From Carcharhinus longimanus (lineage: Eukaryota), in NCBI GenBank assembly GCA_030264375.1, contig JASCQW010000061.1, positions 118,583,046 to 118,647,045 of the forward strand: 64,000 nucleotides of DNA, read 5' to 3'. Both the position numbers and the translations under genes were made by a program. This document shows positions 18,186-56,548 of the stretch, piece after piece. The number at the start of each line of letters is the position of its first letter. Position 1 is the first letter of the stretch. The notes beneath the pieces were generated by a model, which searched no databases, had not been told where the DNA came from, and saw nothing but the letters and a program-made list of their open reading frames with translations.

Positions 18186-18735
18186 CAGTGAGAAGTCTCA
18201 CAACATCAAGTTAAAGTCCAACAGGTTTATTTGGTAGCACAAGCCACTAGCTTTCGGAACGCTGCTCCTTCATCAGGTGAGTTGGATTTCAGTTCACAAA
18301 GAGGGCATATAAAGACACAAACTCAAATTTACAAAATAATGGTTGGAATGTGAGTCTTTACAGGTAATCAAGTCTTGAAGGTACAGACAATGTGAATGGA
18401 GANNNNNNNNNNNNNNNNNNNNNNNNNNNNNNNNNNNNNNNNNNNNNNNNNNNNNNNNNNNNNNNNNNNNNNNNNNNNNNNNNNNNNNNNNNNNNNNNNN
18501 NNAATTTACAAAATAATGGTTGGAATGTGAGTCTTTACAGGTAATCAAGTCTTGAAGGTACAGACAATGTGAATGGAGAGAGGGTTAAGCAAAGGTTAAA
18601 GAGGTGTGAATGGTCTCCAGGCAGGACAGTTAGTGAGATTTTGCAAGTCGTGGGGATTACAGATAGTGTGACATGAACCCAAGATCTTGGTTGAGGCTGT
18701 CCTCATGTGTGCGGAACTTGGCTATCAGACTCAGA
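18186..18735 (-). mobile_element. Penelope-like element 3' part (end of GIY-YIG ORF plus pLTR with hammerhead)
   Basis: Minus-strand translation ...LIAKFRTHEDSLNQDLGFMSHYL*, followed by the pLTR shared with other copies; contains a 100-N gap. Confidence 0.8.
18244..18280 (-). ncRNA. Minimal type I hammerhead ribozyme in Penelope-like element (intact core)
   Basis: Minus strand: UCAC-CUGAUGA-A-GGAGC agc GUUCC-GAAA-GC-UA-GUGG. Stem I (U)CAC/GUG(G), stem II, palindromic AGCU stem III. Confidence 0.8.
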
Positions 18736-18739
18736 CGCT

Positions 18740-19160
18740 GTACTTCCCCCCCTACTCCCCCACCACCACCAGAAAAATGTGACCCACATCCTCCCCCCAC
18801 CCCCACCCAGAGAACGATCTGACCCGCCACCCTTCTGCCCCCTACATCTGAGTCAGAGAGCCGTTGGAAGCACTGTACGGGCTTCTTCAGCAGCTGGAGC
18901 GCCCGATTCAGACTTTCATTTAGCAGGTCCGTTACGGCGCGGTTCCGGATTGGCAAACGCGGTTATAAAGGGGGAAAGGCTGATAAAGTTGGGCGGGCAG
19001 TTCATTAATTCAATTTAAATGCAAATACATTTAAATTGCTGTTGCGCAAAGCGGATCGCCGCCATTCCCGGGTTTCGGTAGAGTGGCAATCCGGTAAAGT
19101 CCTCACATCTGACTTTACCACACTTTCGCGCCCAAAACGGCAATGGTAAAATCAGGCCCG
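18740..19160. mobile_element. GC-rich TIR/MITE-like element
   Basis: AT-rich near-palindromic core (CAATTTAAATGCAAATACATTTAAATTG) and end GGTAAAATCAGGCCC abutting a CR1. Confidence 0.5.
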
Positions 19161-19849
19161 TAGTGTCCCGACTCCGATACCCAATGCCCTACCTGATGAA
19201 GACCAAACGCCTTCTTCGCCACTCTGTTTACCTGTGACGCCACTTTCAACAAACTATGTACTTGTATTCCAAGGTCCATTTGTTCCTCGACACTCTCCAG
19301 GGTACCACCGTTCACTGTGTAACTCCTACCCGGTTTGACTTTCCAAATTGCGATACCTCACACTTAGCTGCATTGAAATCCATTTGCCAATCCTCGGCCC
19401 ACTTGGCTAACTGATCGAGATCCTTCTGTAATTTTTGATAACCTTTGTCACTATCAAATGATATCCCATATCTCCACCTGGAATACTATATCCGGTTTTG
19501 GTCTCCTTATTTGAGGAAGGAGGTGCAATGGATGCAGTTCGGAGGAGGTTCACCATGCACGTGTTTTAGCATTTCTCCTTACATTTTAGTAGTTAATAAA
19601 CTTATTGCATCTTTACTCAAGAAAGCCCAGTTAAATTGGCTACTTTTTAAACATAACAGGTCTGGAAAAGGGAAAGGGAGCCTTGTTAGATTAAAACTTG
19701 TTACTACCAGCAGAGGCTGGGTCGAATAAAGACACAAAGGCATCCAGGTTGTAACAATTTGGGGTTATCCTAGCTCGGTGGTGACAAATCGAGGGGTCTC
19801 ACCCAGAACAATTTTTGTGGGACTTCACCTATGATTGATCATAGCAAAA

Positions 19850-21068
19850 TACACATCTGGCCATGATCGGCCACAGAACACAGGAGTTGCCCTCAAGTCA
19901 ATATTGACTTCACACGCTATCAAGTTTCATGACATCGGGTCAAATACGGACAAGGAAATATCTCTCCCCCGACCTCAGCTGACGAATCAGGGCTCCTCCA
20001 TATTTAACATCAATTGGAGCAAGCGTGACATGACAAAGGGCACAGAACGTACACTGGGTGGGGGAATTAAAATCTCCATCACCAAGGGTGACTTGACAGT
20101 ACCGTTACAGACTGAGCTGGTCGACTCTAAAGGGCATAAGCTGCGTACTGGGTCTGCGGCAGGTAGTAAGGGAACCAATAAAAGAGAAAACGTATTTGAC
20201 CTCATCTGCACTAACCTGCCTGTCATAGATGCAGCTGTCTCGGCCAGTGTTGGATATCAGTAGGGCACAGTCCTTATGGAGATGAGGTCTCACCTTCACG
20301 TAGAGGATACACCCAACTGTGTTGTCTGGCACCACCATTGTGGTGAATGGGATAGATTTCAAACAGCGACTCAAGACTGCACAACTATGAGGCACTGTGG
20401 GCCATCAGCAGCAGGAGAATTGCACTCAACCACAATCTGTAACCTCACGGCCTGACATATTTCCAAACTAACATTACCGCCAAGCCGGGGGATCGACCCT
20501 GGTTCAATGATGAATGCAGGAGGACGTGCCAGGAGCAGCACCAAGTTTACCTAAAAATAAGATGTCAACCTGGTGAAGATACAATACTGGACTACTTGCA
20601 TGTCTAACAGCATAATCAGCAAGTGGTAGATAGAACTAAGCTCTGCAATCGTGCCATTTCCAACTGTAAATGGTGATCAATAATTGAACAACTCACTGGA
20701 GGAGACGGCTCCACAAATGGGTCAATGGGAATTGGGGGCAAAACTCTCTGCTGGTTGGATTCGTAGCTAGCACAAAGGAAGACAGTTGTTGCTGTTGCTG
20801 CTCAATCATCTCAATTCTAGATTATCACTGCAGTAGGGTAGAATCCCAGGCCCATCCATCTTCAGCTGCTTCATCAATGGGCTTCCTTCCATCAGAAGTG
20901 GAGATGTTCGCTGATGAATGCGCAACGTTCAGCACCTTGGGAGACTCCTCAGATACTGAATCAGTCCATTTCTGAATGCAACAAATCTAGAAAATATCAA
21001 GGCTTGGGATGGACAATAAATGCTGGCCTGGCCAGTGAACCCCACATCCCTTCAATGAATACAAAAAG
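19850..21068 (+). mobile_element. Decayed CR1/L2-group LINE ending in GGACAATAAATGCTGGCCTGGCCAG..CACATCCC
   Basis: Endonuclease-like DLICTNLPV and RT remnants. Same family at 61760-62340; isolated tails at 1720-1830 and 30320-30418. Confidence 0.65.
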
Positions 21069-21519
21069 ATCTTTGCTGGTCTTATTTCCTCCTCATTTCT
21101 TCAGTTCCTCTTTGCACCTAAAATATTCTACTCGATTGCCTATTGTATTAGGATCCTGACCTTTATCACAGGCCCCCTTTGTCTGTTTTATTTTAATTTC
21201 AATTTCTTCAGGCATTCAAGAATTTCTAGTTTTGGATGCCTTTCCCCCTAACCCTCAATATCCAGTCTGTACCCAAATTAGCATTTCACTGAAGGCCTCC
21301 CATTGCTCAGCTATGGTTTAAACTTTGTTTCCATCCCAGTTGAGACAGATACCTTTGCAACACCGTGAAATGAACCGGCTTCCAGCTTATACCATGACTT
21401 TTTCGGTAACTATTCCAAATGTAATTGTATTTTGTGTTCCTCGACTGGAAGAGAACAGTCTTGCCTGGTGATTGTAGAGTGGTGTTCATTCATTTGTTGT
21501 CATAGCATCTACATGGCAT

Positions 21520-21962
21520 TTGGCCTCTGATCTTCAGTTAAGCGTTCTCCAAGGCGGCCCTCACGACATACAACAGCGCAGAGTCACTGAACAGAAACTG
21601 ATAGCCAAGTTCTGCATACATAACATGGCCTCAACCAGATCTTGCACGTCACACTATCTGTAACCCCCACAACTTGCCCAGACTTGCAAAATCTCACTAA
21701 CTTTCCTGTCTGGAAACAATACACATCTNNNNNNNNNNNNNNNGCTTAACGCTCTCTCCACTCACATTGTCTGTACCTTTAAGACTTGATTAGCTGTAAA
21801 GACTCACATTCCAATCATTAGTCATGTAAATTGAGTTGGTGTCTTTGTGCCCTGTTTGTGATCAGAACTCCCACCCAGCTGATGAAGGAACACCAGTTCC
21901 GAAAGCTTGTGGCATTTGCTACAAATAAATCTGTTAACCTGGTGTCGTGAGACTTCTTACTG
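21520..21962 (+). mobile_element. Penelope-like element 3' part
   Basis: ASDLQLSVLQGGPHDIQQRRVTEQKLIAKFCIH... (GIY-YIG C-terminal region), then pLTR and hammerhead, ending GAGACTTCTTACTG. Confidence 0.8.
21875..21912 (+). ncRNA. Minimal hammerhead ribozyme in Penelope-like element
   Basis: CCAG-CUGAUGA-A-GGAAC acca GUUCC-GAAA-GC-UU-GUGG. Core intact; closing pair of stem I mismatched. Confidence 0.7.
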
Positions 21963-24900
21963 AGTCTCAGTGTTCTCAGAGATCCATTTCCAGGGTGTCC
22001 ATCCTCTTTCTTCAATGGTGGGTCAGTGAAATGGGTCAATATGGCACCCAGATATGATGACAGAACTAGCGCCATCATGCCTGCCCCACCGTGGAATATA
22101 GCGTTAAGCTCCCGGTTGCATAATTAATGAGATCGGAGCTGGAAGATACGGCATTGTTTCTTGCCAGCCTTCAGTCGGAAGCGTACCTTGTTCCTACCCC
22201 CGCCACAGGACTTGTCCCCTGTGGGAGAATGCCACCTCACGTTCCCAGTTCTGATTGACATCATTAACTCTGTGGCATTGTTCCATGCCAATGTTTTCTT
22301 GGCAATAATCTATCGAAGTAACTATTCAGTGACTGCGTACAACTCTATTATTGTAAGGCTTACTGTGTTTGCCAATATTTGTCTAAATGAGATTGGAACA
22401 TGGTGCTCAAGGCCAATGCAGCTTATCGTGTCATTTTTTTTTTCTAGGTTGGTATTCTATGCAACCACACATAGATGACATTCTAACTCATACAGACCGA
22501 GCTTGTATCGTTGAAACAAGTCAGACCACAACATCCGAACGTAGCCCAGCGCTCAAAATTTCTATTTTTCATACTCTGTTCCCTATGGATGCTTATTTTT
22601 TGGTGCTTGCTCCATTTGCTCTCTCAATGGTTTAAAAAAATGCATACTATCTCAATGGTGTAACACTGCATTACTGGTCAACGGTGTAAAGAAAATAATT
22701 GATCTCAGCTGGCTGTCCTTTCCCTGGTTCCTTCCCTAATGTGCAAATCAGCCAGAACGCCCATTTCTGTTACTTGTATCCCCTGCTAAAAAGTGTATCT
22801 GAGTCAGGACCGACGATAGTTACGATCCTCCTGTAGTCAACCAGTCAAGACCATCGGTCAGGCTAACTCAGATGCCACCTGATTGATGTACCAATGGTGC
22901 TGCGTTTCTGTCTTCCTGCCCATCAGTTACTGACATTTCAGGCACCGTTGTGAAAAACACAAAAGAAAGTGAGCAAAACACAAGTTTGACGGACAGAAAT
23001 TGACAAAAAGATAGCTTCAAAATCATTAAAAACATTTTGGAATAAAGTCAACAATGGATCAAATCAAATGTTAACATGCTCGTGATAACACAAGTTGGTG
23101 GAGTCTGTTTAATAAAGTTGCTACGAATTCAAGTCTGACGTTAGCTACCTTCTGTGATGTGGCAAGAGCCACTGCCATCAGTTAATCCTCCAGCCTTCGA
23201 GATTCCAGGCGCTGAAGTGGCAAATGTAGCAAGTCCTGGAAAATGGTTTTTTTCCAGGCAGAGAGAAAAATTTTCAGGGAAGCTGCGAACTCACCAACAT
23301 TTCCCCATATCTTTACGACCGGCCATGTACAGAGATGGAGACAGATAGATCCGACCACTTTTCTCTGGCCATAATTTCAAGGGCCAATCGAAATGACTGC
23401 TTCGTTAGACGTTTAAATTACTTTTTCTTCACTTATAGTTTCTTCCCTGTTTGTATCCTGCAGAATTCTGACTTTCTCCTCTGTAATATTATGGTTATGG
23501 TAGATAATAGCAAGGGATGGTCAGTAAAATCCTATATTTTTAGCAGTCCAAAAGCCCCTTTAATCTGTCACAGCATATTCTTAGACTGCTTTCCGGTTTC
23601 TCTGATCACTTTTGTTTTAAAATGTTTCCCTTCATTTAATTCCATTTTAATTGACCTATTAATTCATTTTGAAGACAAAATATTTAATTTACTTTTCTTT
23701 TCTTGGGCATATATTGATGAACAATTTCAGCTAAATCAGTATGTGTGTTATCAGGAGTTTTGTGTCTACAGTGTATATGGTACATAGCCACGCGATTAGT
23801 CAGTCAATTTTCTCAGACTTCGCTATTCCAATCTCTGTGATTGCTGAGACAATTAATCATGAAAGAGGGGTGAGAGGTCAGAGATGTAACAGACAACAAA
23901 CCAATTATGTATTTGCAGTGCCACTTTTCCAGACAGCTGCCAGAGTTAAGTTCTTCCTGCTCACAAATACATTCCACAGCTTCAACAGCCTTAATTTACC
24001 TCTGGTTTAAAGGGTGGGGAGTTTACTCATAATTTTGTACTATAAAACAAATAATGTAAATGACATAACAGCAAATTAACTGACAGGTGAACAAAATTCC
24101 AACTTTATTTGCAGTCAAGAGCTACAATAAATTAACAGGTTGCTCGTACAAGAAAACGTCAGCTGCATATAGAATCTAGTTACAACAGTGAATTTAACTG
24201 GTGGCTACTTTATTTTACAGAATTCTAATCAAGTGTAACAAACACCAATTTGGACAATAAAATACACAAACTGAAAATGTGAAAATATCTCATGGAGAAC
24301 AGGTAAAGAGAAAAGATGGTGTTAGACTGGAAAGTACCCAATTCCACTGAGGTGAAAGAGAATTTATTCCATGCAAATTGGTTGGAAAGCCCCCTGGAAC
24401 TTATAATCTAATTGTATTGGTGCAAAATTGATCGTGTGTGGGTTTTCTGAGTTGTCTGAAGGACCCAACTGGAGGGCACATTCCCTAACGGTCAATTTTA
24501 AGTTACTGAGCAACAAACAAAACAAGAACAGATCATTTCCTGCTGCACAAGGGCTGTTCTTTGGATGCCAAGAAAAGCTGTTTCCAATTGCAAGAAGATT
24601 AATGTTTTTAAAGCTACTGACATGACCTGATCAATGTCTGTGAATGAAAAGATTTATAGACAGTTTTGAGCTTGTGTATTTTCAAACAAATCCAGTGTTC
24701 AAAGGAAGTCATACGAAGTTTTGTAAAAACTGGGTAAAACGTTCATAGTTTTTAACGAGCAGAAAAAAAATTTAGCCACCGAAAACTGATGACACATTTA
24801 TGCACAGAGTTAGCAATTATTTTAAGGCTCATAAATATAACTATTTTGTTTTTGTCATGTTCTAGTTGTACAAACAGCAAAATCTCACTCCATTATAAGG

Positions 24901-25375
24901 CATGCAAATACAGCAGCTCCCAGGACAAAGGAACCAGATGACTGATTATGCAGGCATTTTTGAGATGGAAAGTTTGAAATTTCAGAACTATTTCTTCAAC
25001 ATATACCTTGCTGCAGTTATCCAAAGTCTTGGTGAGGTTCTGGAATATCGTGTGCAATTTTGGTCTCCTTATCTGAGGAATGATGTTCTTTCTACAGAGG
25101 GAGTACAGCAAAGGTTTACCAGGCTGATTCCTGGGATGGCGGGGCTGATGTACGAGGACAGACTGGGTCAGTTAGGATTATATTCGCTGGAGTTTNNNNN
25201 NNNNNNNNNNNNNNNNNNNNNNNNNNNNNNNNNNNNNNNNNNNNNNNNNNNNNNNNNNNNNNNNNNNNNNNNNNNNNNNNNNNNNNNNNNNNNNNGGTGT
25301 TGGGATGGCATAGAAACCTATAAAATTATAACAGGACTGGACAGGGCAGGAAGGATGTTCCCAATGGCGAGGGGC

Positions 25376-25529
25376 CTGTTTGTGAACAGAACTCCCACCT
25401 ACCTGATGAAGGAGCAGCGCTCCAAAAGCTAGTGGCTTGTGCTACCAAATAAACCCATAGGACTTTAATCTGGTGTTGTGAGACTTCTTACTGTGTTTAC
25501 CCCAGTCGACTGCCTGCATCTCCACATCA
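25376..25529 (+). mobile_element. Penelope pLTR fragment inserted in a CR1
   Basis: Hammerhead relic plus terminus ...GCATCTCCACATCA; the CR1 resumes at GGGGAGTCCAGAAC. Confidence 0.8.
25399..25435 (+). ncRNA. Hammerhead ribozyme relic (GAAA changed to AAAA)
   Basis: CUAC-CUGAUGA-A-GGAGC agc GCUCC-AAAA-GC-UA-GUGG. G12 lost, consistent with CpG decay. Confidence 0.65.
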
Positions 25530-27789
25530 GGGGAGTCCAGAACTAGGGGTCACTATCTGAGGAGACCATTTAGGACCGAAACGAGGAGAAATTTCTTCAC
25601 CCAGAGAATGATAAGCCGACGGCATTCTCTACCACAGAAAGCAGTCGTATGTTTTCAAGGAGGAGTTAGATGTAGCTCTTGGGGCTAAGGATATGGGAGG
25701 GAAAGCAAAAAGAAGGGTTACTGAGTTGGATGGTCAGCCATGACCATAGCGAACGGCAAAGCAGGCTTGAGGGGACGAATGGCCTACTCCTGCTCCTATT
25801 TTCTATGTTTCTACACGAAAAGGTTCAAGAGCCAAAACAAAAGAGTGGCTGCAGGCCAATTACTGTGCCATGTTGCTGGACTGTTTATACTGCTGCAGCA
25901 AGACCCTGGATCAGTAATTGCAAAGTCCACAGGAGGTGGTGCAGAAGGTGGTCATTCGGTCCACAGAGAGTTTTTTGTGCCAACTTCGTCTGCTTTATTG
26001 ACAGTTGTTCTTAATTTTATTCAAGAGGAGCCGATACAGATTTCAGCCCACAAGAATTAACAAAATTGCAATTTAAAGAACATAGGAGAAATATCCACAA
26101 TTCACCCTAACCAGCAATAAATGAAGCCATCCCTGCAAAACATGACACGAAATGTTGTGAAGTAAATACACTCAAAAATTAAAGAAATTGCAGATTATAT
26201 CTTGGAGTTCAACACACCCTAGTGGCAAAATCTAAAACTACATCAGAAAACATTTCATAGCTTTCATCAATCAAGACAGTTGTACCCCGTCATTTTTTTT
26301 AACGACCTGCGTATTATTTGTACGTTAATACGCCGTTTATTTATAATATTCAGGTCATGGGCATTAACAGAGACGTTCACCCAGTGCTCATGCATATAGG
26401 ATGTGATTGTAGGGTTGAAGATCATGGAATCCCTACAGTGCAGAAGGAAGTTATTTGCCCATCAAGCTTGCACAAACAACAATCTCACCCAGGCCCCTGT
26501 CCCTGTAACCCCATGTATTTATCCTGCTAATCCCCCGACACTAAGGGGTAATTTACCATGGCCAAGCAACCTAACCCGTACATCTTTGGAGTGTTGGAGG
26601 AAACCCAAGCAAACACGGAGATAATGTGCAAACTCCACACAGACAATGACCTGCAGCTAGAATTAGAACCAGGTCCCTGGTGCTGTGAGCAGCAGTGATG
26701 CAGATATGTAATGTGTATCTTTGTAAATAAGAAGTCCTGAGTGCATAAAATCTAAGCTTCAGTTCTATCCTTCACTGCCTGACTTTCAGAGTTCTAACCT
26801 CGTGTTTCAATGCCTGCATTCATATAAAGATTTCATGTAAAAATCAATGAGTATAAAATAGTCATGTTGGCAAGAAAGAATATTTTATGAAATCATGCAT
26901 AATTAAAATTAATGGACATAAAATACTGCAGAGCTCATTGCACGATATCCCAACATGTAACATTATTGTGCACATTTGTACGAAGAACGTAAGAAATAGA
27001 AGCAGCAATAGGTACTGTTAAAGGAGTATAGGATTACTTGGGACAAAATGACTAATAGATTAAAGTAATTTAGAGTGAATATAGGACAGAAAAAGGACTA
27101 AGTACCTGAAGTTACAAAGGTGCTGTTTTGCATAAAAATACATAGAAGCACTGTTAGAGAATTTAAACATATATTTTTCAATATTCTGTACACCTTGGCC
27201 AACTACACGCTTCCCCAAGGCATGGTGGAATATAGCTAAGTAAAAAAGAACCATTTTCCTTTGAAACAATACAACTACTAAGTGAAATAGAAAAGCACTC
27301 TCTTACTAGCGCGGGTCTCAGATAGTTTGGGCAATCCCGGACAGCCAAATGAATAGAGTAATACAATTTTTCCGAAAAAGAATTGCTCAGTACATAGTGA
27401 GACGGTCGGAAAAATGTTCCGGATTTACGTATTGAGGTTGCTAGGACACGGTGGGCAACAACTTCCAGACTGTACGGACCTATATATTTTCATGCTGCCA
27501 GATGGTGGGATATTATTGGTCAAGGTAAAAAATTCATACTAACATGATTGGCTCACCTGGCTAGGATGAACAGAATAGGCGGGCAGATGATTGCTGAAAA
27601 ATGTATAAATGTAATACTGATAATGTAAATTAGAATAATTTAGGGCTGCCCTAAAGCGTTCTCGCACACGTGGACCAGGCTCGGGCAACAATAGAACACA
27701 TCTTCAACCAGAATTACTGTCTCCGTGAGCTCTTTGTATTTGCTAAGTTGCAATTAATTACGTAAAAGCCAGCAAGATACTTACATCGA

Positions 27790-29226
27790 CGAAAAGCTCC
27801 TTCAGCCATTAAACAAGATCATAGCTGATCCGATCTGAGCTTCAACTCTACTTTGCTGTCTGTTCCCCATAACTTCTGACTCCACTATTGTTCTAGAACG
27901 TCTATCTCAGCCTTGAACATAATCAACAGTTCCGTCCCCACAGATCCCTGAGATAGAATTCTAAAGGTTCCACAACTCCATCTTAAAATGGATTAGTCCT
28001 TATTCGGAAATTATATCTCTTGTTTGAGATTCTCCCATGAAGGGAATCAGCCTCTCAGTATTTACTCTATCAAGACCCCTCAGAACCATGCGTTCTATAG
28101 ATCACCTCTCGTTCTTCTAAACACCAATGAGTATACACTGTAGTTGTTTAATGCTTCCTCAGAAGACAAACCGCTCATCCCAAGGATTAACCTAGTGTGC
28201 CTTCTCTGAACTATCTCCAATGCAAAAATATCCTTCCTTAAATAAGGAGACCAAATGACATACAGTACTCGAGGTGTGGTCCCACCAATATCCTGTACAG
28301 TAGCAAGACCTTCCTTCTTTTATACTCCAAACCATGCATTAAAGCTTAACATTCAATTAATTACTTTCAGTATTGGCATGCTAACTTTTCGTATTTCATG
28401 TACGAGGACACCCAGACTGCGCTGTATTGCAGCATTCTGTAGTCTATTTCCATATAATATTCAGCATTTCTATTCTTCCTAACAAACTGAATACATCACA
28501 TTATATTGCATCTGCCTAAACTTTGCCCACTTAATTAGTCTATCTCATTCCCTTTGTAGATTTTGTCCTCCTCACAACTTGCTTTCCTATCTATCATTGT
28601 GTCATCAGCAAACGACTGCAAATAGTTGAGGCCCCATTAGTGATCCCTGCAACACTCCACTAGTTAGTATGGCAACCTGAAAGTGACTCATTATCCCAAC
28701 TCTGTTCATTAATCAATCCTCTATCTATGCTAATACATTACCCCTAACACTATGAGTTCTTATCTAGTATAAAAAGTATTTATGTGGCACCTTATCAAGT
28801 GGCTTTTGGAAATCTAGATGCACTGCACAGCCACCTGTTCTCCTTTATCTACCCTGCATATTAAATCCTTAAAGAAATCTAATAAATTTGTTAAACATGA
28901 TTTTCCTTTCACAGAAGGACGTTGACTCTGATCAATGGGATTATGAATCCCCTTCACTAATAATTATTTACAGTATTTTTCCAATGAAAGATTAACTGGT
29001 GTACTGTTTTCAGTCATGACATCTGCAGTTTCCCAAACCTTTCCAAACTCGAGAGAATTAGTTACAACCAATACACCCACCATCTTTGCAGCCACTTATT
29101 TTAATAGCCTAGGATGCAGGAGATCAGGTTGAGGGGACTTGTCAGCTTTTAGTCCCAATAAATTGCTGATCACCTCTTCTTTACTGAAAATGGTTGTTTT
29201 AAGTTATTTCCTTCCTTTGGCCTCCT
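27790..29226 (-). mobile_element. Old CR1 LINE remnant
   Basis: Colinear with other CR1 3' halves. Confidence 0.75.
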
Positions 29227-31020
29227 NNNNNNNNNNNNNNNNNNNNNNNNNNNNNNNNNNNNNNNNNNNNNNNNNNNNNNNNNNNNNNNNNNNNNNNNNN
29301 NNNNNNNNNNNNNNNNNNNNNNNNNNGAACTTCTTCACTCAAAGGGTGGTGAATCTCTGGAATTCTCTGCCCGTTGAAGTGGTGGAGGCTACCTCGCTAA
29401 ATAGATTTAAGACGCGGGTAGATAGGTTTTTGGTAGGCAAGGGGATTAAGGGTTATGGGGAGAAAGCAGGAAAATGGAACTGAGCCACTTCAGATCAGCC
29501 ACGATCTCACTGAATGGCGGGGCAGGCTCGAAGGGCTAGATGGCCTACTCCTGCTCCTATTTCTTATGTTCTTATGTTTAACAAGGATCTGTTGTAATGG
29601 CCTCGCTGCTAGGACTGGAGGCAAATGGAGGGCCCCTTGGGCAGTGTCAGCATGGTATACCGGCAGTGCCCTCTGGGAATGGCCTGAGGAGGGTGGGGCC
29701 TAAGGCTGTACACTCTGAAATTGAGGGCGGAGGGGGTGAAATCAGCCGTGGAGGCCAGGAGTAGCACACAGCAGAGCAATCTGTGCAAATGCAATGGCGA
29801 CTTCTGCTGCAATCTGCCGACTTTTGGTGAGCCTAGGCCCTGTTCCCATCCTGCTGCTGGGAAACAGATCTTGCCTTTTTTCTCCCTGACTCGCCCAAAC
29901 AAAAAGGGCAATTTTGTCCCATTTTCACACTCGTTCGGCTCTTAGAATTCTTTTGGTAAGATGGTTTCCCCTAGCTCTTCCTCATTTTCCATTATTAACT
30001 TGCCAGGCGAGTATGGGGTAAAGGGAGAAAAGTGACCACAAGAGGAGAAGATAGATGTGTGCCTCTGACCATCATATCAATCAAGAGGAAGTTCCCTGTC
30101 TTCAAATCCTTATGCCTTCAAACTCACTGGTGGAGGAGTGTAAGATGCAGCCTCCAGTTGCCCCTTTCATCTATCTGTGCCCGCCGACCTACATTCATTC
30201 CTGGTGAAGCAATGGCTCAATTTTAAAATTCCCATCCTTGTTTTCAAATCCCAACCGGAGCGTGGCTCCTCCTATCTCTCATCTCCTACAGCCTCACAAC
30301 CGTCCAAGACTGCAGCTGTTAAAAGGTGGTGGTTCAAGCTTCCCAAGGCCAAGTAAGGATGGGCAACAAAACACTGGTCTTACTAGCGACACTCACATCC
30401 CATGAAAGAATAAAAAAGACAAAGTCACTGTATTCCTCCAATCTGCCCTTGAGCATCCCACATTTTGATTAATCCATTGATGACTGTGTCCTTAGTTGCT
30501 GGACCCTGAGCTCTTGAATTCCTTCCTGAACCTCCCATTTTCTCTACTCCACCCTTATCCTTTAGGATGCTCTTGGATCAAGCATTTGGTCATCTGTCCT
30601 AATAGCTCCTTATCGTGTTGGTGTTTTGTTTTGTTTTATAATGCTCCTGAGAAACACCCTGTGTTGTATTAATACGTTAAAGGTGCTATATAAATACACT
30701 TGTTAGCCAATTTTAAACAGTTACATGTCACCGTGTTTACAGCTTTTGAAAAATAATTTCACATCAGTATAATATAGATTGACTGTCTATCAAAATGTTA
30801 CAGAACATATAATGTCACATCATTTACTCACATCAAAGCCTCTTATTGGGTATTATTTAGACTGTGTATGAAAGATGATCTTATTCATAAGTAATGAAAT
30901 CCTTAAAACAAAACCTATGAATAATTCTCATGCGAAGCAAAGGATGTTGCGGTTTCTAGTCTTGTTTCATTCACAGCGCCTACTGCAATGACATCATACA
31001 GGCAAAAGACAATCACTAAC

Positions 31021-31191
31021 CTGCATGTTCCTCAGGAGCTGGAAGATCTCCATTGTTCTTGAAACAATGTCTTGCACCGTCTCTTGGCCGATTCGACAGA
31101 GAGAAGCTGTATTAACTTCACGTCCAGCCTGGGCCTGGGGTCCAGAAAATGCGCCAGACATTCCAGCACCAGGCACTGGGGGCGTTGCCAT
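31021..31191 (-). CDS. MED30: Mediator subunit 30, first coding exon (57 codons)
   Basis: MATPPVPGAGMSGAFSGPQAQAGREVNTASLCRIGQETVQDIVSRTMEIFQLLRNMQ matches the vertebrate MED30 N-terminus. Phase-0 donor CAG|GTTAGT at 31020. Upstream acceptor (pyrimidine tract, TAG at 31229-31231) suggests the exon begins at 31228. Confidence 0.97.
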
Positions 31192-40200: not shown

Positions 40201-40219
40201 CACCTGAGCCCAGACTACC

Positions 40220-40672
40220 AGACTGCGCTTGCGCCGGGATCGGAGCGTCCGACATTGCGCCTGCGCCCGGATCGGATAATACGACATCGCGCCTGCGCAC
40301 AAAATCTCGCAACCTGACATCGCGCCTGCGCACAAAATCTCACATTCTGACATCGCGCCTGCGCCCAAAATCTGAGAACCTGACATCGCGCCTGCGCACA
40401 AATTCTGAGGGCCTGACATCGCGCCTGCGCACAAAATGAGAACCTGACATTGCGCCTGCGCAGTAAGAAGTCTGACAACACCAGGTTTAAGTCCGACCAA
40501 TTTATTTGATAGTAAACTCACTATCAAATCAAACTTCTTACTGTCTTTACCCTAGCCCAACGCCGGCATCTCCACATCATTGCACCTGCGCGCAGACCGC
40601 GCCTGCCCCAAAACCTGATAACCTGACACTGCGCCTGCGCGCAGAACCGGCAGCCGGTACACGCGTCTGCGC
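40220..40672. repeat. ~33-bp minisatellite (core TGACATCGCGCCTGCGCACAAAAT plus variable linker), interrupted by a Penelope fragment
   Basis: GCGCCTGCGC at 40257, 40289, 40322, 40355, 40388, 40421, 40452, 40631; degenerate units near 40224, 40581, 40598, 40662. Confidence 0.92.
40461..40579. mobile_element. Mini Penelope insertion inside the promoter minisatellite
   Basis: CAGTAAGAAGT...ACTTCTTACTG inverted pair plus terminus GCATCTCCACATCA. Flanking CATTGCGCCTGCGC / CATTGCACCTGCGC is a 14-bp duplication with one mismatch. Confidence 0.78.
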
Positions 40673-47741: not shown

Positions 47742-47884
47742 GTTTTTAGAAGTCCAGATCATCATCAACCTGTTCTGGTTCCCCCATGCCGACACTCTAG
47801 TTAAGAAAGCCCACCAACGCCTCTATTTTCTCAGAAGACTAAGGAAGTTTGGCAAGTCGGCTACGACTCTCAACAACCTTTACA
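47742..47884 (+). mobile_element. Rex1/Babar-like LINE fragment
   Basis: NLFWFPHADTLVKKAHQRLYFLRRLRKFG. Confidence 0.7.
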
Positions 47885-48331: not shown

Positions 48332-48557
48332 TGCTATCTCCACTCACATTGTCTGCATCTTTAAAACTTGAATAGCAGGTTAGCTGTAAAGACTTGCATT
48401 CTAATTAGTATTCTGTAAACTGTGTGTAACTTTATATGGCCTTCTCTGATCAGAACCTTCCACACGCCTGACGAAGGAACAGCGATTCCGAAAGCTTGTG
48501 GGATTACTATCAAATAAACTGGCTGGACTTTAACCTGGTGTTGTGAGACTTCTTACT
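48332..48557 (+). mobile_element. Penelope pLTR fragment
   Basis: Homologous to 21750-21962. Confidence 0.78.
48464..48501 (+). ncRNA. Minimal hammerhead ribozyme in Penelope-like element
   Basis: ACGC-CUGACGA-A-GGAA cagcga UUCC-GAAA-GC-UU-GUGG. Core intact. Confidence 0.72.
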
Positions 48558-48564
48558 CTATTTG

Positions 48565-48870
48565 GTGGAAAATACCATAGGGGTCCTGAAATTACAGTTC
48601 CAACACCTGGGCAGATCTGGTGACGCATTTCAGTACTCTCCTGCGAGGGAGTCGCACATCATCGTGGCTTGCTGCTCCGCACAGTGGGGAGAACCCAGCA
48701 GACAAGGAAATCGAAGAACTGCATGTCTCTTCTGATGAGGAGGAAGGGGATGACGGTGATGAGCCCTGGGAATCTGAGAAGGCTGGTGAACAGGCCATTG
48801 CACTTGCTAGACAAAGCAGGCATGCTCCCGAGGCCCTCACTGCCAATAGATTCCAGGATAAGGATGGCCA
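48565..48870 (+). mobile_element. PIF/Harbinger DDE transposase C-terminal relic
   Basis: Frame from 48565: VENTIGVLKLQFQHLGRSGDAFQYSPARESHIIVACC, matching the Harbinger/HARBI1-type ERTIGxLKxRFRCL..GGALQY..CCxLHN block. After a frameshift, an acidic tail EELHVSSDEEEG...ALTANRF. Confidence 0.8.
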
Positions 48871-50381
48871 CATTTTGCCTCCTTGAGGGAGAATCCCAGT
48901 CCAAAATTTCCTGCAAATCCGTAAGTCAGTGCGTTCAGAAAATGAATGCCTCAACAGAGATTGACAATTCGAGCTATTGACGTTCGGCTCAGTCAATTTG
49001 AACTTTTGATTGTCAGGTGTGGTATTGTTAGATTCTTGTCCTGCATAGACACAGAGCAGTGCAATGAAGTGAAACTTTTATGGAAAGGAAACAAAGGAAT
49101 CATTCAACACTTTGGAAATTACTTCTTTTCTATTAGATATGTTCATTTAAACTTGCAATTAATGGGATTGAAACAAAACAATGGGACCTTTCACAGTATT
49201 TGCTTCAATTCACTTATGTAAAACTAATCTGAAGTTAAAATGATGACCCTCCTTTATCATTTTACAGTGGAAGATTCTTAATGACATAATTGATTTTATT
49301 ATCAAGCCCATGATTAATTTTTTTATGACTTGCAATCATTAGTGAAGAGCAATAAACAATACTCAGTTGAAGCGTTTAGTATCTTGCTGAGTAAGGATGA
49401 TAAGTTTTCTGCAGATCCATATGCTAATTGGAATAACAATGGTCTTCTTGTCTGATACTTTCACCACAAAGATTTAAGGTCCATGGTATTTGGGTAACAG
49501 CCTTTAAAAGAAAGGTCGCCCTCTATTAGAAAATAATATATTAAGCTGTAGCTTAGTCAGACACGGGGTGCTGTAGCACTTCCATTTTGTAACTCATGCC
49601 TAAACATCAATGTTATTCTTAACAGAGTCTCACTGTGACTTAAGATGCTATCCTTCCACCCTGGAGACAACTCAATTGCAGCCTGGTAGAATGAAAATTT
49701 TCACCTGATGCTGTTCACAGTGTAATGTAGTCATAAGTCATGAGTGAAGAGCATACATTTCCATCTTTTACTTCTGATATTGAGCTTCATATTGCCTTTC
49801 CAGGTTTTCTGGCCAATAAAAGAAGACAGCAATGACATGTTGAATCTGTCAAGGGTGGAATATGTAGTTAAATATAATCAGAATAAAATTACATTAACAG
49901 CACCTCTGGGGATGTTCACTAGATTAATTATTGGGATGAATGGTTTCTTTCATTCTTTCGTGGGATGTGGGCATTGCTAGTTGGGGTAGCATTTATTGCC
50001 CATCCCTAGTTGCCCTTGAGTGGCTTACTAATGGTAAATTTCCTTCCCTAAAGGAAAGTGAGCCAGGTGAATTTGTGCAACAATCAACATCATGACCATC
50101 ATTAGATTTTAACTGAATTCCAATTTCACCATGCTCCCATTAAATATTTGGGAGGATCAGATGTTGAGAGTCCAACTGGCAATATGCCAGATACTGTCGC
50201 ACTTCATAGCAAACCAACCAAGTTGGCAGAATGGCTCAAGGGAGCCATCTTTGGAGTGTGGGAGGAAACCATAACACCCAGAGGAACCCCACACAGAACA
50301 AGGAGAACATCCACACAGATAGTCACCCAAGGCCCGGGTCCCTGGCGCTATGAGGCTGCAATGCTAACCACTAGTAAACAC

Positions 50382-50842
50382 TGTTATCGGACAACAAATT
50401 TTATGAAATTGGGCACACAAAATGGAAGCAGACTAAAGCTATCNNNNNNNNNNNNNNNNNNNNNNNNNNNNNNNNNNNNNNNNNNNNNNNNNNNNNNNNN
50501 NNNNNNNNNNNNNNNNNNNNNNNNNNNNNNNNNNNNNNNNNNNACCATTGATAACCAACCAGACAAAAACAATTAACACACACTTAAAACAATTGCTCCA
50601 ACACTCGAAAACGTCGAAACAGGATGGCTGAAGTCAAATACTGTAAATAAAGGATTAGCATTTGAAACACGAAGTTCAGGTATAACTATAGCCCATTGCG
50701 GGGGAGTCTTTAGAGCACTTTCTGGACAGTCCGATTGTATGTCCTGACTGTGCTACTCCGTCGACGTAAAGAAAATAAAGCTGTGCCGTTATTGAACTTC
50801 ACCCTGAGTCCGTAGTGGTCGTTTCGCCCACCCGTGCTAACA
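50382..50842 (+). mobile_element. Solo LTR
   Basis: Termini TGTTA...TAACA, 4-bp target-site duplication ACAC (50378-50381 and 50843-50846), TATAA near 50681, AATAAA near 50774; internal N gap. Confidence 0.8.
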
Positions 50843-53800
50843 ACACCAATTTTGTTTTTGCAGCAACAGTGCCAAAATAAACTGATTGAACAATATTAAG
50901 GGAATTGTTTTACCCTGGATACTTTAGATGCCAATGGTCTTAGGATGTGGTCAAGATGGAATCTTCAGCTGAAAGATCAGTTCAGCCCCTGTTAAGTACA
51001 AGAACTCAGCTTGGTTAAGTTTTTGATGTTTATGCTGGGAAAGGCTGCCTGGAGGATCATTAAGCAATATTGCCTGTCAGCATTCATTAAGGGGCAGCTG
51101 GAGATGTAGTGGTAATGTCACTGGACTCGTAAACCAGAGGGCCCAGGCTAATGATCTGGAGTTCAAATCCAGCCACATCAACTAGTGGAATTAAAATTCA
51201 ATTAATAAATATGGAATTAAAAGCTAATCACAGTAATGGTGACCATGAAATTATCATTGATGCAAAACCCATCTGGCTCACTAATTCCCTTTAAAGATTG
51301 TTATCTGCCATCCTTACCTGATCTGGCCCACATATAACTACAGTAACCTGTTACATATTTCTACTTTTAAATGGCCTAGCAAGCCACTTTGTTCAAAGGC
51401 AATTAAGATCAATATGATTTTTTTAAATGAGGCTGCATTGCATATTGGTTGCTACAATTTGACCTAATGCAACTAACTGGGAGTAAAGTAGTCATTAACC
51501 TTTTAATTACTTTTTCTGTTTCTGTCTGTTAGCTTTTAGTGATTTATGCACTTGGACCCCTAAATCATTTTACTTCTCAGTTCCTTAACTTGTCACCATT
51601 CAGACAATGTTCTGGTTTATTTTTCTTTTCAAACTCTAAATTGCAGATTTTAAAAGAGATAACAGATAACAAATGTGGAGATTTTGATCTTTCAGAATTA
51701 TTTAGATTCTGTAACAATTCCCAATGATTAGAAACCAGCAGATGTAACCCTGACTTTTAAGAGATGAGCTTGATAAAGAAAGTGGAGAAATATAGAACAG
51801 TGAGCCGATCATCGGCGGGCAAAGTGTTAGATTCTATTATTAGGAACAAGGTAACGGGGCATTGGGAAAATGCTAAAATGATTAGAGTCAACCCAGATTT
51901 ATGAAAAAGAAATTGTGTTTGACACAACTTTGCTAATGATACAAAGTTAGGTGGGAAAGTAAGTGGCAAGGAGGATGCAAAGAGATCATAGAAAGACAAA
52001 GACAAGTTGAGTGATTGGGCAAGAACATGACAGGTGAAATTTAGTGCAGTGCAATGTGAACTCCAAAAGCCATGAACCCCAAATAATGAGAGGGAGGCCA
52101 AAAGGCAATGATTCTCTATATGAGGGGATGATGTAATCTTGGTCCATAAAGGAACCCAGTTTTTCCTTGGCAATCATATGTTCTATGTATACAAAACTAT
52201 TGTACTGGTTGAAGAATGACCTGCCAGAAAAAAGCTGCTGAGTTAAACTTCCTCTCTTCCAAAGTGTCTTTCAGGTGCTCTGTTAATTACCCAACTTTCT
52301 GATTGAAGGAGATGCCCAGAAGTATCCTGAAGTTATACAAATCATGGACCTCTCTCCCGGATCCTATGAACGTTGAATCTTGTGCCAACATTTGTTGCAG
52401 AGTGGATTTTCATTATATTAGCAATCTGCTTTTACTCTGTGTAACATATGTTCCAAAAGTTACTTATTAAGTGATTAGTTAACTAAAATTTTTTATTCCA
52501 AAGTATTATGGAATTATCAGTTGTATTTTCAATTCAAATAATGCAATGATGTCAGTACTTCTGTAGCGATTGTAAACGTGTGACTTTAATCATCAAATCC
52601 ATTGAGACTATAGAAATATTCACTCAGAATTACATTAAATTGTGACAGTACAGCTATTATTATTCATCTATCTTTCCATATACAATTGAGCCTAATCTTT
52701 CTGTACATGCACACATGCCCTTTTAAAGAAGCGCTCCCAATTTTTTAACCCAGTAACAGGTAAGTTTAGGACTGATATCAGGAAGCTCTTTAAAGATGAA
52801 GAATCCATTTCCAGAAGCGGCAACAACAACACTTGGACCATTTAGGAAATGATTGCAGTTTTGAGGGCAGGGAGAATGTCAAGATAAGTTGAATAGTCTT
52901 CCTCGTCCATAATCTTTTGTGAATCCTGATTTACTCCAAATAGCTGGTCATAGAATCCCTACAGTGCAGAAGGAGGCCATTCGGTCCATCAAGTCTGCAC
53001 CGACCACAATCCCACCCAGGCCCTATCCCCATAATCCCATTGCATTTACCCTAGCAGATTCCCCTGGCATTCGGGTCAATTTAGCATGGCCAACCCACCT
53101 AACCCACACATCTTTGGACTGTAGGAGGAAACTGGAGCACCCTGTCAAAGGAATATCTATTTCCGCAGGCGTTCACTGCATTGTATTTGTGGTGGGAATG
53201 ATGGGATTCATCATTCCTTCATTAAATCTTCATTAAATTCTTTGCAGAAGGATCTAGATCGGCTGGGCGAATGGACCAGGAAATGGCAAATGGAATTTAA
53301 TGTTGGCAAGTGTGAGGTGGTCCACTTTGGTAGGAATAATGGTAGGAAGGANNNNNNNNNNNNNNNNNNNNNNNNNNNNNNNNNNNNNNNNNNNNNNNNN
53401 NNNNNNNNNNNNNNNNNNNNNNNNNNNNNNNNNNNNNNNNNNNNNNNNNNNCATGATCTTATTGAATGGCGGGGCAGGCTCGAAGGGCTGGATGGCCTAC
53501 TCCTGCTCCTATTTCTTATGTTCTTCTGTTCTAAATGCTGCATTACATGATCCTGGCAACTAAAGGGACATCTTACAGCCTGACATGCTAAAACATACTT
53601 CCTTTATTTTGATCCTACGACAAAGCTGCCTCAAAACAGCTGAGAAAAATGCAGATTTTTTGAGCTCGCGACCTTGTTTTTTTTGTAAATCTCAATCTCA
53701 TCTGTCACTGGTTGTTTTATTTTAAAGAACATGAATACATACAAAGGAGTTGGAGAATATTCCACTGTATTTCACAAGGGAACATTAAAATAGTAATTTA

Positions 53801-54460
53801 TATACAATAACCCAATCACCGACAGATCAAAATATCAGATATGCAAATAGGAATGAAATCCCTGTACAAGATTACACATGCGTGGTAAAGAAGACCAAAG
53901 ACTCATAATCACAAGTGGATCTAACTATAGTGGACAACAAATGTGCCAAAAAAGAAGAGCTAATGATTTCTTGGTCTTATAAGTAGATCTAAGGAAACAT
54001 CCCTCATAGTGGAATTCAATTACAAAATCTGGAATTAATTGATTAAGTTTAAAGGCCAATGGTCCTCAACGATTTATGCTTTATCGCGTTTCTATCAATC
54101 TCCTGCTGGAGGTGACCTTCGATACCTGACTGTTTCAGAGTTAAGGAGCAGTTAGTTACTTTTTCTACATTATAAATGTTAATTATATGGTTACATATTC
54201 AGCTGGGTCAGAAATAAAAATCGGAAGCACTTTGAAAACAAAAATACAGTGATGTAACTGCAGAAAGTGCAGCTTTCACGAGTCCTATTGTTAGCTTATG
54301 TAGCATATTTTCATATACGAATTTCAGCAAAAAGTGAACGGATAAGTTGGTATGGTAAACCATGATAGTTGATTCAGTGTGTGACACGTTAGTTGCAAGA
54401 GTTTTAATTCAAAACTTTCTTGGATTTTGCTGTGGCTCATAAAATGACAGTGGATTTGGC

Positions 54461-54466
54461 TTTATT
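54461..54466 (-). terminator. Candidate poly(A) signal of SLC30A8
   Basis: AATAAA on the minus strand about 58 nt after the stop codon; other candidates lie further downstream. Confidence 0.35.
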
Positions 54467-54523
54467 GCTTTTGCCAAACATATTGCATGCTAATAAAAAT
54501 GGGTACTGTCCCTGAATGCAGCT

Positions 54524-54669
54524 TTAATCTTTGGGTTCCTGGCAAAACAAACATGTTGGTTCTTGATCCGAATACTGTTCCACTTGAATTGTGATAGAAT
54601 GAAAATTGAAAGTGTCAAACATTCTCTGTGTCATTTCCTTCAGTACTTGTTGAGGATTCACTTCATCAG
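54524..54669 (-). CDS. SLC30A8: ZnT8 terminal coding exon (146 nt including TAA)
   Basis: (A)DEVNPQQVLKEMTQRMFDTFNFHSITIQVEQYSDQEPTCLFCQEPKD*. CAG acceptor; C-terminal CLFC as in ZnT8. Confidence 0.95.
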
Positions 54670-55198
54670 CTGTGAATAACAGGACAAGTAGTGATTCTTA
54701 ACGAAGTACAATCGATTTATTAAGTATATGCAAATAGATGGTTCTTAATATGCTAGCTGATAAATAAACAGGATGCATCACAGTGCCTTCATCACACTAT
54801 TATTAGACTGACAGCTTCAATGTCCGCACCCAATAATTTCTTGTAATTTTTCTTACTGTTCAGGAAAATTAAATATCCTGCTAGTTGCATGTGATTCTAA
54901 TGCATATGGCCACAGGGAAGACCAGCAACTGCGAAGACACCCAAAAAGCCTTTTGTAGAATGGAAAGAGGAAAGTCCGAGATATTTGGACCAAAGTGAGG
55001 ATTCAGGATTTAATGAAGTAGGGCAGAATTGGAAAAGGAGGTGCAGGACTAAGGAACATCAAAAGAAGGGCAGAGAAGTCAGACGTTATGTCTGAGACCA
55101 GCAAGGTAATCTCCTGTCTTGTATATATGCAGATTGCATTGGTTCCACGAGGGCCTCTCTGAGGAACTGTACATCTATGAGTTGTACTGCTCCAAGAA

Positions 55199-55265
55199 CA
55201 GTAAGACCTCTCACAACACCAGGTTAAAGTCCAACTGGTTTATTTGGTAGCACTAGCTTTCAGAG
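55199..55265 (-). mobile_element. Truncated Penelope pLTR end
   Basis: CAGTAAGACCTCTCACAACACCAGGTTAAAGTCCAAC...CACTAGCTTTC, homologous to 18186-18255. Confidence 0.7.
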
Positions 55266-56412
55266 TCTCGAGCTCCTCGAAGAGAGGCTGCACTCCTCCC
55301 CCCCACCCCGTCCCAACCCCAACCCCAACATCTACACTGCTTCTGCAGGAAATTCTATACCATCACCGACAAGATTGATTCATTTCTGCATGCCTAACTT
55401 ATCGTGTGAAGTAAGCATCACTAGAAAAGTAAATTTTCCAGCATTGGTTTTCAGCCCACCAATCTCGGCGCGGGCTCGTTGGGCCGAAGGGCCTGTTTCC
55501 CGTGCTGTGTTGTTCTTTGTGTTGTCCTTTTTATCTCCATGATGGAGGACCTCATGGACTTTGATTCTGGAATCTACATGAAAGTGTGCAGGATTTACCA
55601 CCAAGCAGCCTAGCACGTGTTTTGCCACCGTGGGAGGTGGCCCACCATTGGCTGGTCCCACTGTTAATAACGGGGTTTCCTACAGAATGCTCTCCTCAAT
55701 GCCAGGAAACCCGCAATGGGGGTACATAGTTGGTGGGACCGGAAGATCTCGCCAGCGTGAAGGGCTGGAAAGTTCCAGTCAATATTTATTTCCTCTGCGG
55801 TCTCTGTATTGTAGAACGTTTATTTCTCGTTACTCTTGCATGTGGAGGCAGCGGTGCAGCCTGTCTTTCGTGTTTTGACTGTGTGCAACAAATAACCATG
55901 TTTAGTTCATCATTAATAAAATTTGGATCACACAAAACCAAGAGACTCGGAAATATACCACCACTTATAAAGAAGGAAACAAATCAAAATACCGTCATGT
56001 TTATGGGTGGATGCTGAGAGGAGAAATTAGTATTGTTAAAATTAACCCCCCTCCTGTCTATCTCAGTGATCTGCTTTAAGAGGATGGAGTGCGTGGTGTT
56101 CAGGAGGAATGGGAGAGTGACCTGCTCCTCTTGTCTGCTCTCTGCACTGTTGATCAGTCCTTGATTTCAGGGAGTCAGTGTCAGTGCTTTCTCCTTGCAG
56201 GTTTAATAAATGGAAAAGATTTCAGCCTAAAGCTTATCTTGTGCAGCTCTTGGAAGAAGGTTGGGTTGTGCTCATTGGAGAAGAGAGTTGTGCTTCTTTT
56301 GCCTGCTGCTCTGGCATGGTGGTCATTTGGCACAGCTTGAAACTAAATGGGCACGACTGTCTCGTATGCAATCAGAGGTGAGCTGGCAAGGTGGATACAG
56401 AACTGGATACAG

Positions 56413-56548
56413 AATGTGTCTTTATATGGCTTTTCTCTGACCAGAATCTTCCACGCACCTGACGAAGGAACACCGTTTCCGAGAGCTTGTGGGATTACTA
56501 TCAAATAAACTGGTTGGACTTAAACCTGGTGTTGTGAGACTTCTTACT
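56413..56548 (+). mobile_element. Penelope pLTR fragment inserted in a CR1
   Basis: Close to 48421-48557. Confidence 0.78.
56455..56492 (+). ncRNA. Hammerhead ribozyme relic (GAAA changed to GAGA)
   Basis: GCAC-CUGACGA-A-GGAA caccgu UUCC-GAGA-GC-UU-GUGG. Confidence 0.62.

Follow-up and report, generated by a model that had tools for sequence, protein, structure and literature searches.

We suggest that the five hammerhead motifs in the window, a 64,000 nucleotide stretch of the Carcharhinus longimanus genome analysed here at its full length, lie in broken terminal repeats of Penelope-like elements (PLEs), and that the one copy in sense orientation within MED30 is a passive relic with no meaningful cutting of the pre-mRNA. 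Judged from sequence comparison and folding predictions, we put the probability of this reading at roughly 0.88. The shark family is an additional member of the PLE minimal hammerhead class described in 2014, and not a new class.

The motifs follow the pattern CUGAYGA-A-stem II-GAAA-GC-UH-GUGG, with C3 at 18276 on the minus strand and at 21879, 25403, 48468 and 56459 on the plus strand. All five had been reported in a preliminary description and were recovered in the window with the stem sequences given there, as were the extra A after CUGAYGA (5/5) and the reduction of stem III to the palindrome AGCU (5/5), which occupies positions 15.2-16.2 in the absence of a helix III. Both features match the published PLE minimal hammerhead consensus (PMC4209133). 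Every motif has one nucleotide between A9 and 10.1 and a G10.1-C11.1 pair. The two catalytic boxes (CUGANGA; GAAA-N-N-UH) follow type I order; they are exact in three motifs and carry a single substitution in two. The three intact cores thus stand as described, but the other two have not lost a GAAA base as had been stated; they carry the substitutions G12A (25424) and A14G (56483). Similarly, the 5' strand of helix I reads NCAC in two motifs only (UCAC and GCAC), the others being CCAG, CUAC and ACGC.

In brief, the motif at 18244..18280 (minus strand) has an intact core, helix I UCAC/GUGG and helix II GGAGC/GUUCC, and its anatomy predicts a cut between 18248 and 18247. The plus strand motif at 21875..21912 has an intact core and a broken helix I, the closing pair being G against G; helix I is at least 3 bp in the other four. 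The motif at 25399..25435 (plus) is predicted to be dead from its G12A substitution, given the catalytic role of G12 (PMC6155905). The remaining plus strand motifs are at 48464..48501, with an intact core, a 3 bp helix I that includes a wobble pair and a 4 bp helix II, and at 56455..56492, which carries the A14G substitution.

Our own descriptor demanded an exact core, a helix II of at least 4 bp and a helix I of at least 3 bp, and 40 first-order Markov resamplings served as control. The window has 2 matches, whereas the resamplings average 0.0 (maximum 0). These are 18276 and 48468 only, because the closing pair of 21879 is broken and the other two cores are substituted. Permitting one core mismatch gave 4 matches against 0.05, dropping helix I with an exact core gave 3 against 0.05, and the loosest descriptor gave 6 against 0.625, one of the six being unrelated (37726). 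Another hammerhead-like string, at 25557, was rejected as a sixth motif; it misfits the descriptor and sits in the reading frame of a different retroelement remnant. A search of the whole window against Rfam, whose hammerhead models had been proposed earlier as a check, returned four matches at E<=10, none of them to a hammerhead family; the motifs have the minimal form without helix III and are not recognized by the Rfam covariance models. Scanning viral contigs and metagenome contigs with the hammerhead pattern gave 0 hits in each.

Stem II had also been described as covarying. Two-sided change is seen in 1/9 pairs, the single pair 10.4-11.4 (A-U in three motifs, G-C in one, G-U in one). With five sequences only, the same score was reached by 216 of 500 shuffles, and stem II covariation on these five copies is not significant.

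The motifs belong to a repeat family with eight copies in the window, the five long ones being 76-90% identical. All eight are solitary, 5'-truncated and of differing length, and share a common 3' end (8/8). The copy hosting the 18244 motif (18184..18728, minus strand) begins with the last 22 codons of a GIY-YIG-type ORF (18728-18663), followed by the terminal repeat. A 100-N gap (18403-18502) breaks this copy, and the sequences on either side of the gap share 77 identical bases. The copy at 21434..21965 (plus) consists of an inverted 5' ORF piece (21434-21514, minus strand), a broken GIY-YIG-type C-terminus (21517-21660) and the terminal repeat. A short end with a tail of approximately 35 nt (25375..25529, plus) is inserted in another retroelement remnant, the reading frame of which resumes past the insertion. 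The ends hosting the 48464 and 56455 motifs are at 48333-48557 and 56415-56548, both on the plus strand. We considered whether a single full element is bounded by 21875 and 25399, 3.5 kb apart on the same strand. This was ruled out because there is no ORF homology between them and because 25375-25529 interrupts a different remnant.

The preliminary description missed three 5'-truncated copies that lack a core, at 11860, 40461 and 55200. All are on the minus strand: a 3' end at 11850..11921, in sense in MED30 intron 2; a 3' end at 40461..40579 with an inverted tail copy (40533-40579) on its 5' side; and a 3' end at 55192..55267 that keeps only the GAAAGCUAGUG half and lies in sense in the last intron of the zinc transporter gene.

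That minimal type I hammerheads reside in Penelope-like terminal repeats, as had been proposed, is supported by the ORF remnants, the tail, the inverted pieces and the anatomy of the motifs. A GIY-YIG-type C-terminus lies directly upstream of the terminal repeat in two copies. An exhaustive search of 1.84 billion proteins with the ORF remnant gave 8 matches (best E 3.2e-12), five of them with shark source names, and two of the eight have weak Pfam GIY-YIG matches below the cut-off (E 0.0017 and 0.012). These relatives align back to 21517-21657, to 18728-18663 and, inverted, to 21514-21434. For the 47-aa ORF remnant, word-indexed searching of proteins gave one candidate and none that scored, but the exhaustive search did find relatives. 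A PDB sequence search with P0004 gave a weak match to I-MsoI (E 0.015, 0 passing stretches) that we take as chance. The tail is found at 25495-25529 and, inverted, at 40533-40579, and it also forms the loose end in 512-897 contigs of each sequencing run. The reverse transcriptase part of the element was not found in the window. The family may be Neptune-like. PLE insertions are typically 5'-truncated, with inverted 5' pieces and a tail of 30-40 nt (PMC8557442), and all three features are present among the window copies.

The family is very abundant. All four public runs contain family contigs, 33,157-61,192 per run, and their summed depth in run X1 is approximately 1-2 x 10^5 times that of unique flank, an order of magnitude only and not a copy number. 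The copy number nevertheless looks higher than the 4,000-9,000 given for coelacanth and Xenopus (PMC4209133). The shark motifs resemble the minimal hammerheads in metazoan PLE terminal repeats (Cervera and De la Pena 2014, PMC4209133) in being type I, with CUGANGA plus an extra nucleotide, G10.1-C11.1, GAAA, a palindromic 15.2-16.2 and a short helix I, and in their position in a terminal repeat downstream of the ORF, mostly in solitary truncated copies. Their helix II, of 4-5 bp, is among the shorter ones. Among the entries compared in Fig. S3 of that paper, the painted turtle shares the G-C-U palindrome and the downstream CAAAUAAA with the shark family, and no cartilaginous fish is named among those entries. 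PAc, a Poseidon-clade PLE of Anolis carolinensis (Frangieh et al. 2024, PMC11167929), likewise carries its minimal hammerhead close to the 3' end of insertions, with a tail after it; protein-assisted cleavage has been shown for PAc.

The type I hammerheads of animal non-LTR retrozymes are related to PLE terminal repeats and depend on dimers (PMC7229834; bioRxiv 10.64898/2026.07.22.740005). Published work derives animal retrozymes from such repeats and found them in one sampled chondrichthyan, yet it is scarcely credible that the window holds non-autonomous tandem retrozymes making circular RNAs in place of PLE fragments: retrozymes form tandem arrays, of which none is seen in the assembled sequence, whereas the eight shark copies are solitary ends of varied length with a common 3' end, two of them with ORF remnants.

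We place the first and second coding exons of MED30 at 31021..31191 (Pfam Med30 E 3.5e-13, with a donor site) and 17029..17187 (E 4.4e-19, with splice sites), both on the minus strand. The penultimate exon of a zinc transporter (ZnT/SLC30) is at 58073..58204 (minus; Pfam ZT_dimer E 4.5e-09), and its last coding exon, at 54524..54670 (minus), was placed by translation and a ZT_dimer match below the cut-off (E 0.0044). From synteny, this gene is presumably SLC30A8. Gene orientation, Pfam-placed exons and splice sites bear out that 18244-18280 is in sense in MED30 intron 1, and it is the only one of the five motifs that is in sense within a gene. The 21875 and 25399 motifs are antisense in the same intron, and the 56455 motif is antisense in the last intron of the zinc transporter gene. 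Copies had been placed inside introns of both genes, which is true of these four but not of the 48464 motif; that motif lies 6 kb beyond the zinc transporter stop codon, past several AATAAA sites, and is probably intergenic.

The MED30 copy keeps every core base and a 4 bp helix I. The family has a competing helix I register, which is removed in this copy by a private change at 18283. A second sense core was not found on the minus strand of the assembled window; a tandem partner could lie within the gap at 18403-18502 or another gap. The predicted share of folds with helices I and II is 0.016 in 57 nt, 1e-4 in 120 nt and 2e-4 in 190 nt, and the AGCU helix forms in none of five predicted homodimers. 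Duplexes with the two antisense intron copies are predicted at -269 and -185 kcal/mol, versus -42 for the lone sense copy. It should be noted that folding programs ignore tertiary contacts in the core and proteins. In published work the PLE minimal hammerhead is inactive as a monomer and weak as a dimer (PMC4209133), the anole PLE hammerhead requires protein and has no RNA-seq ends at its cut site (PMC11167929), and 1/9 Xenopus dimers cut. The proposal that 18244-18280 cleaves the MED30 pre-mRNA is unsupported: no sense partner is seen in the gene, the active-like fold is predicted to be rare, antisense pairing is predicted, family cores decay at CpG sites, and published monomers and protein-free RNAs are inactive.

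Decay was compared at CpG sites only, weighted by contig depth. Over the four runs, G12>A makes up 20-23% of depth and C11.1>U 25-30%; the next CpG shows 16-21% and 29-42%, and a CpG outside the motif 12-40%. The family cores decay at CpG as neighbouring sites do. Depth drops upstream of 18240, but subfamily differences and collapsed contigs account for this equally well, and we did not take it to mark 5' ends made by cleavage.

We propose that the copies are broken, independent insertions of a very abundant Penelope-like retroelement. In the active parent, cleavage after UA/UU would occur only when a tandem transcript brings together two motifs whose AGCU palindromes pair to form helix III, probably aided by the protein of the element, as published PLE work suggests. 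After a 5'-truncated insertion each copy would be alone, and would then decay.

Another reading is that sense, intact intronic copies cut in the presence of element protein or abundant element transcripts, as might be the case in the germline, lowering host pre-mRNA and being selected against. The protein-assisted cleavage of the anole hammerhead (PMC11167929), the intact core and helix I at 18244-18280 and the published depletion of Xenopus retrozymes from introns are consistent with this, as is orientation in the window, where 3/4 of the intronic core-bearing copies are antisense and both intronic core-less copies are sense. However, neither Fisher (p 0.4) nor binomial (p 0.625) testing finds this split significant. 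The 3' end of the MED30 copy recurs at this site in a genome that is 1.7% diverged, and probably also in one that is 6% diverged, so the insertion has been tolerated. The antisense copies are predicted to sequester the MED30 motif, and the anole protein binds RNA downstream of the motif (PMC11167929), a part that the truncated copies would largely lack. We consider such conditional damage unlikely. The wider view, in which the PLE hammerheads of sharks number around a hundred thousand and those that are sense, intact and intronic act as latent cut sites fired by element protein or transcripts, coupling transposon activity to host pre-mRNA cutting and shaping the survival of copies, is somewhat more doubtful still.

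It is very improbable that the MED30 copy has been retained as a regulatory intronic ribozyme, for which the type I hammerheads in amniote introns of RECK, CTCL and DTNB are a precedent (PMC6155905). The sense orientation, the intact core and the insertion, probably old as judged by the shared 3' end, fit this idea. However, the amniote motifs are few, canonical and conserved across species, whereas the MED30 copy belongs to a vast, decaying repeat family and is built without a helix III and with a loop 2 of 3 nt. Its helix II is weaker than that of the family, with G-U at 11.4 where 88-92% of depth is G-C, and in a family of tens of thousands chance alone would give one intact sense copy. Contigs of the two related genomes enter the 3' end of the element by 31 and 25 letters and end at 18208-18214, short of the motif.

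The passive relic reading, which we favour, would be of little consequence; the shark family simply joins a class of transposon ribozymes known since 2014. Were the MED30 copy to cut, it would place a core transcription gene under the action of a transposon ribozyme. The scale of the family means that intron orientation and decay statistics could test whether solitary PLE hammerheads cut host transcripts.

A CUGANGA scan of both strands of the window recovered five hammerhead motifs, at 18244, 21875, 25399, 48464 and 56455, with C3 at 18276 (-), 21879 (+), 25403 (+), 48468 (+) and 56459 (+), respectively. All five have a single A between A9 and helix II, the extra A after CUGAYGA noted in the preliminary description, as well as a G10.1-C11.1 pair and A-G-C-U spanning positions 15.1-16.1. 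The core is exact in motifs 18276, 21879 and 48468. Two cores were thought to have lost a GAAA base; two cores are indeed altered, but by substitution (G12A in 25403, A14G in 56459). The helix I 5' strands are, in the same order, UCAC, CCAG, CUAC, ACGC and GCAC, and the NCAC strand described earlier thus fits the first and last copies but not the other three; the helix I closing pair is broken in motif 21879. The full descriptor matched twice in the window and in none of 40 first-order Markov resamplings. With one core mismatch allowed there were four matches against a mean of 0.05 in such resamplings, and the loosest descriptor gave six against a mean of 0.625, one of the six (37726) being unrelated. 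The five-motif feature is real. An Rfam search of the window gave no model reaching the five motifs.

In PMC4209133, minimal hammerheads of metazoan Penelope-like elements (PLEs) are built in the same way, down to the extra nucleotide and the palindrome. Judged from sequence, the shark motif is by all testable features a PLE minimal hammerhead, and the preliminary description was largely right in what it observed and right in this assignment.

Self-comparison of the window gave eight repeat copies with a common 3' end and different 5' truncation points. Five are long, with 76-90% identity and at least two types; core-less truncated copies lie at 11850-11921, 40461-40579 and 55192-55267 (all -). 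Copies 18244 and 21875 are preceded by the last codons of an ORF. In an exhaustive protein search, the 47-residue ORF remnant had eight matches (best E 3.2e-12), five with shark source names (Mustelus, Rhincodon (three) and Chiloscyllium) and three unnamed. Two of the eight match Pfam GIY-YIG weakly, below cut-off; for the part corresponding to the ORF remnant, no Pfam match passes cut-off in any of the eight. The homologues align back to 21517-21657 and 18728-18663, and on the opposite strand to 21514-21434, an inverted 5' piece. A tail of about 35 nt extends past the common 3' end of one copy and is found inverted at the 5' side of another. In PMC8557442, PLE traits include truncation at the 5' end, 5' copies in inverted orientation and a tail of 30-40 bp. 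Based on the homology of the ORF remnant and on the truncation, inverted piece and tail, we read the repeat as most likely the 3' end of a PLE with an endonuclease, and the named homologues point to a shark as its most likely host. No PLE reverse-transcriptase part was found in the window. The PLE copy at 25375-25529 splits another retroelement remnant, the frame of which continues beyond.

The C-terminal end of a Mustelus FAM210B isoform model (P0002) is an endonuclease remnant of this PLE, which suggests exonisation or mis-annotation of the same PLE family in another shark. A short CpG-rich tandem repeat with units of about 36 nt (40248-40460) abuts the 40461 copy at its 3' end. A 100-N gap is flanked by 77 identical bases (18326-18402 and 18503-18579), which probably reflect a contig overlap left unmerged and not a true duplication.

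The minus strand encodes MED30. Exon 1 (31021-31191) and exon 2 (17029-17187) both match Pfam Med30, and a probable exon 3, recognized by translation only, lies near 6330-6437. Two zinc transporter exons with Pfam ZT_dimer matches, the second below cut-off, are located at 58073-58204 and 54524-54670 (both -). The zinc transporter (54524-60620, -) is upstream of MED30 (17029-31191, -) on the same strand, the order of SLC30A8-MED30 in human. Within MED30 intron 1, motif 18244 lies in sense orientation, as previously described, and motifs 21875 and 25399 in antisense orientation; 56455 is antisense in the last zinc transporter intron. The description of copies in introns of both genes holds for these four but not for 48464, located 6 kb beyond the zinc transporter stop codon and past seven AATAAA sites. 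Three of four core-bearing intronic copies are antisense and both core-less intronic copies sense, a difference that is not significant (p 0.4). Opposed copies flank MED30 exon 2, 11850-11921 (-) versus 21751-21965 (+) and 25375-25529 (+). With about 60 bp at 76-79% identity, they form a weak example of a layout that can promote back-splicing.

Stem II had been reported to covary. In an alignment of eight repeat copies, five of which cover the motif, only one of nine pairs showed a two-sided change, a score equalled or exceeded in 216 of 500 shuffles; on these copies the claimed covariation is not significant and does not count as evidence. We also aligned contigs from four of 22 listed public sequencing runs to 17800-18402 at 80% likeness. 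Position 11.4 is C in 88-92% of depth across the family in the four runs, and the G-U pair counted as covariation is therefore a minority change in the 18244 copy.

When a tandem transcript of the parent element carries two repeats, their AGCU palindromes would pair with each other to form helix III, and the hammerhead completed by the dimer would cut after UA/UU. This dimer model is reviewed in PMC6765202. PMC4209133 reports no cleavage for the monomer and low cleavage for dimers and trimers, and one of nine Xenopus dimers is reported to cut in vitro (bioRxiv 10.64898/2026.07.22.740005). For the anole PLE hammerhead, PMC11167929 reports that cleavage required the element's protein and that no RNA-seq reads ended at the cut site.

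The MED30 copy (18244-18280, -, in the PLE copy 18184-18728, -) had been proposed to cleave the pre-mRNA. It has every core base and has lost a competing helix I register, which both speak against its being inert. However, a descriptor scan detected no further core in sense on the minus strand of the window, where assembly gaps, including the adjacent one, could hide it. The helix I + II fold has a predicted ensemble share of 0.016 in 57 nt and of 1-2 x 10^-4 in 120-190 nt, since the 3' strand is predicted to fold preferentially into a local hairpin, and none of five predicted homodimers contains the AGCU helix. Predicted duplexes with the two antisense copies (21875 and 25399), transcribed earlier in the same intron, reach -269 and -185 kcal/mol versus -42 kcal/mol for its own fold. 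These fold predictions leave out tertiary contacts and proteins. Based on these observations, we infer that the MED30 copy would cut little or not at all; with published monomers inactive as well, the proposed cleavage is unsupported. It is very improbable that intact sense copies in host introns are latent cut sites triggered by element activity.

An invariant CAAAUAAA, which is a canonical poly(A) hexamer, is common to all eight copies and lies 16 nt downstream from the predicted cut (18226-18231, -, in the MED30 copy). In the sense intronic copies 18244, 11860 and 55200 it could serve as a cryptic poly(A) signal, independent of the ribozyme.

Each of the four runs yielded 33,157-61,192 aligned contigs, of which nearly all fell on the repeat. 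In run X1, summed depth was 0.9-1.9 million on the motif versus 8 on unique flank, a ratio of order 10^5 that is no copy number; the window holds eight copies in 61 kb. Among the variant rows listed, 20-23% of depth has A in place of G12 and 25-30% has U in place of C11.1; the CpG next to this site is changed in 16-21% and 29-42%, and a CpG outside the motif in 12-40%. G12 is the general base of the hammerhead (PMC6155905). Since these rates resemble one another, G12 decays like any methylated CpG, as neutral copies should. A run X2 contig (7 differences in 415) extends from the unique flank 31 letters into the MED30-copy element, and a run X6 contig (25 differences, 18 gap letters), below the bridging rule, reaches 25 letters into it; both stop before the motif. 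Related genomes therefore probably carry the same insertion.

A family sub-type without one 7-nt unit just past the cut site (18245-18251) is found in 345-594 contigs per run and in the copy at 55192-55267; with this unit gone, helix I would be shorter and the competing hairpin on the 3' side would be lost. In each of the four runs, the strand-switch joints with the best support connect the two flanks of the hammerhead (18233-18244 to 18280-18282), a single joint being backed by up to 9-30 contigs per run. They may be inversions between helix I arms, or alignment ends set by private changes of the MED30 copy. Adjoining the 3' end of this element, 18115-18183 is a low-copy repeat (about 20-28 contigs per run, depth 50-100 times unique flank).

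The painted-turtle motif is the closest entry to the shark motif that we found in Fig. S3 of PMC4209133, and no cartilaginous fish is named among the entries of that figure that we covered. A literature search found no publication on this shark family, which may be in print, as Lunse et al. 2017 and the supplements of the 2026 preprint (bioRxiv 10.64898/2026.07.22.740005) were outside the search; one chondrichthyan is sampled in that preprint. PLEs are described as common in shark introns, with 30% of whale-shark PLEs intronic (10.1101/443036). The shark family adds a member to an already known class, the PLE minimal hammerheads.
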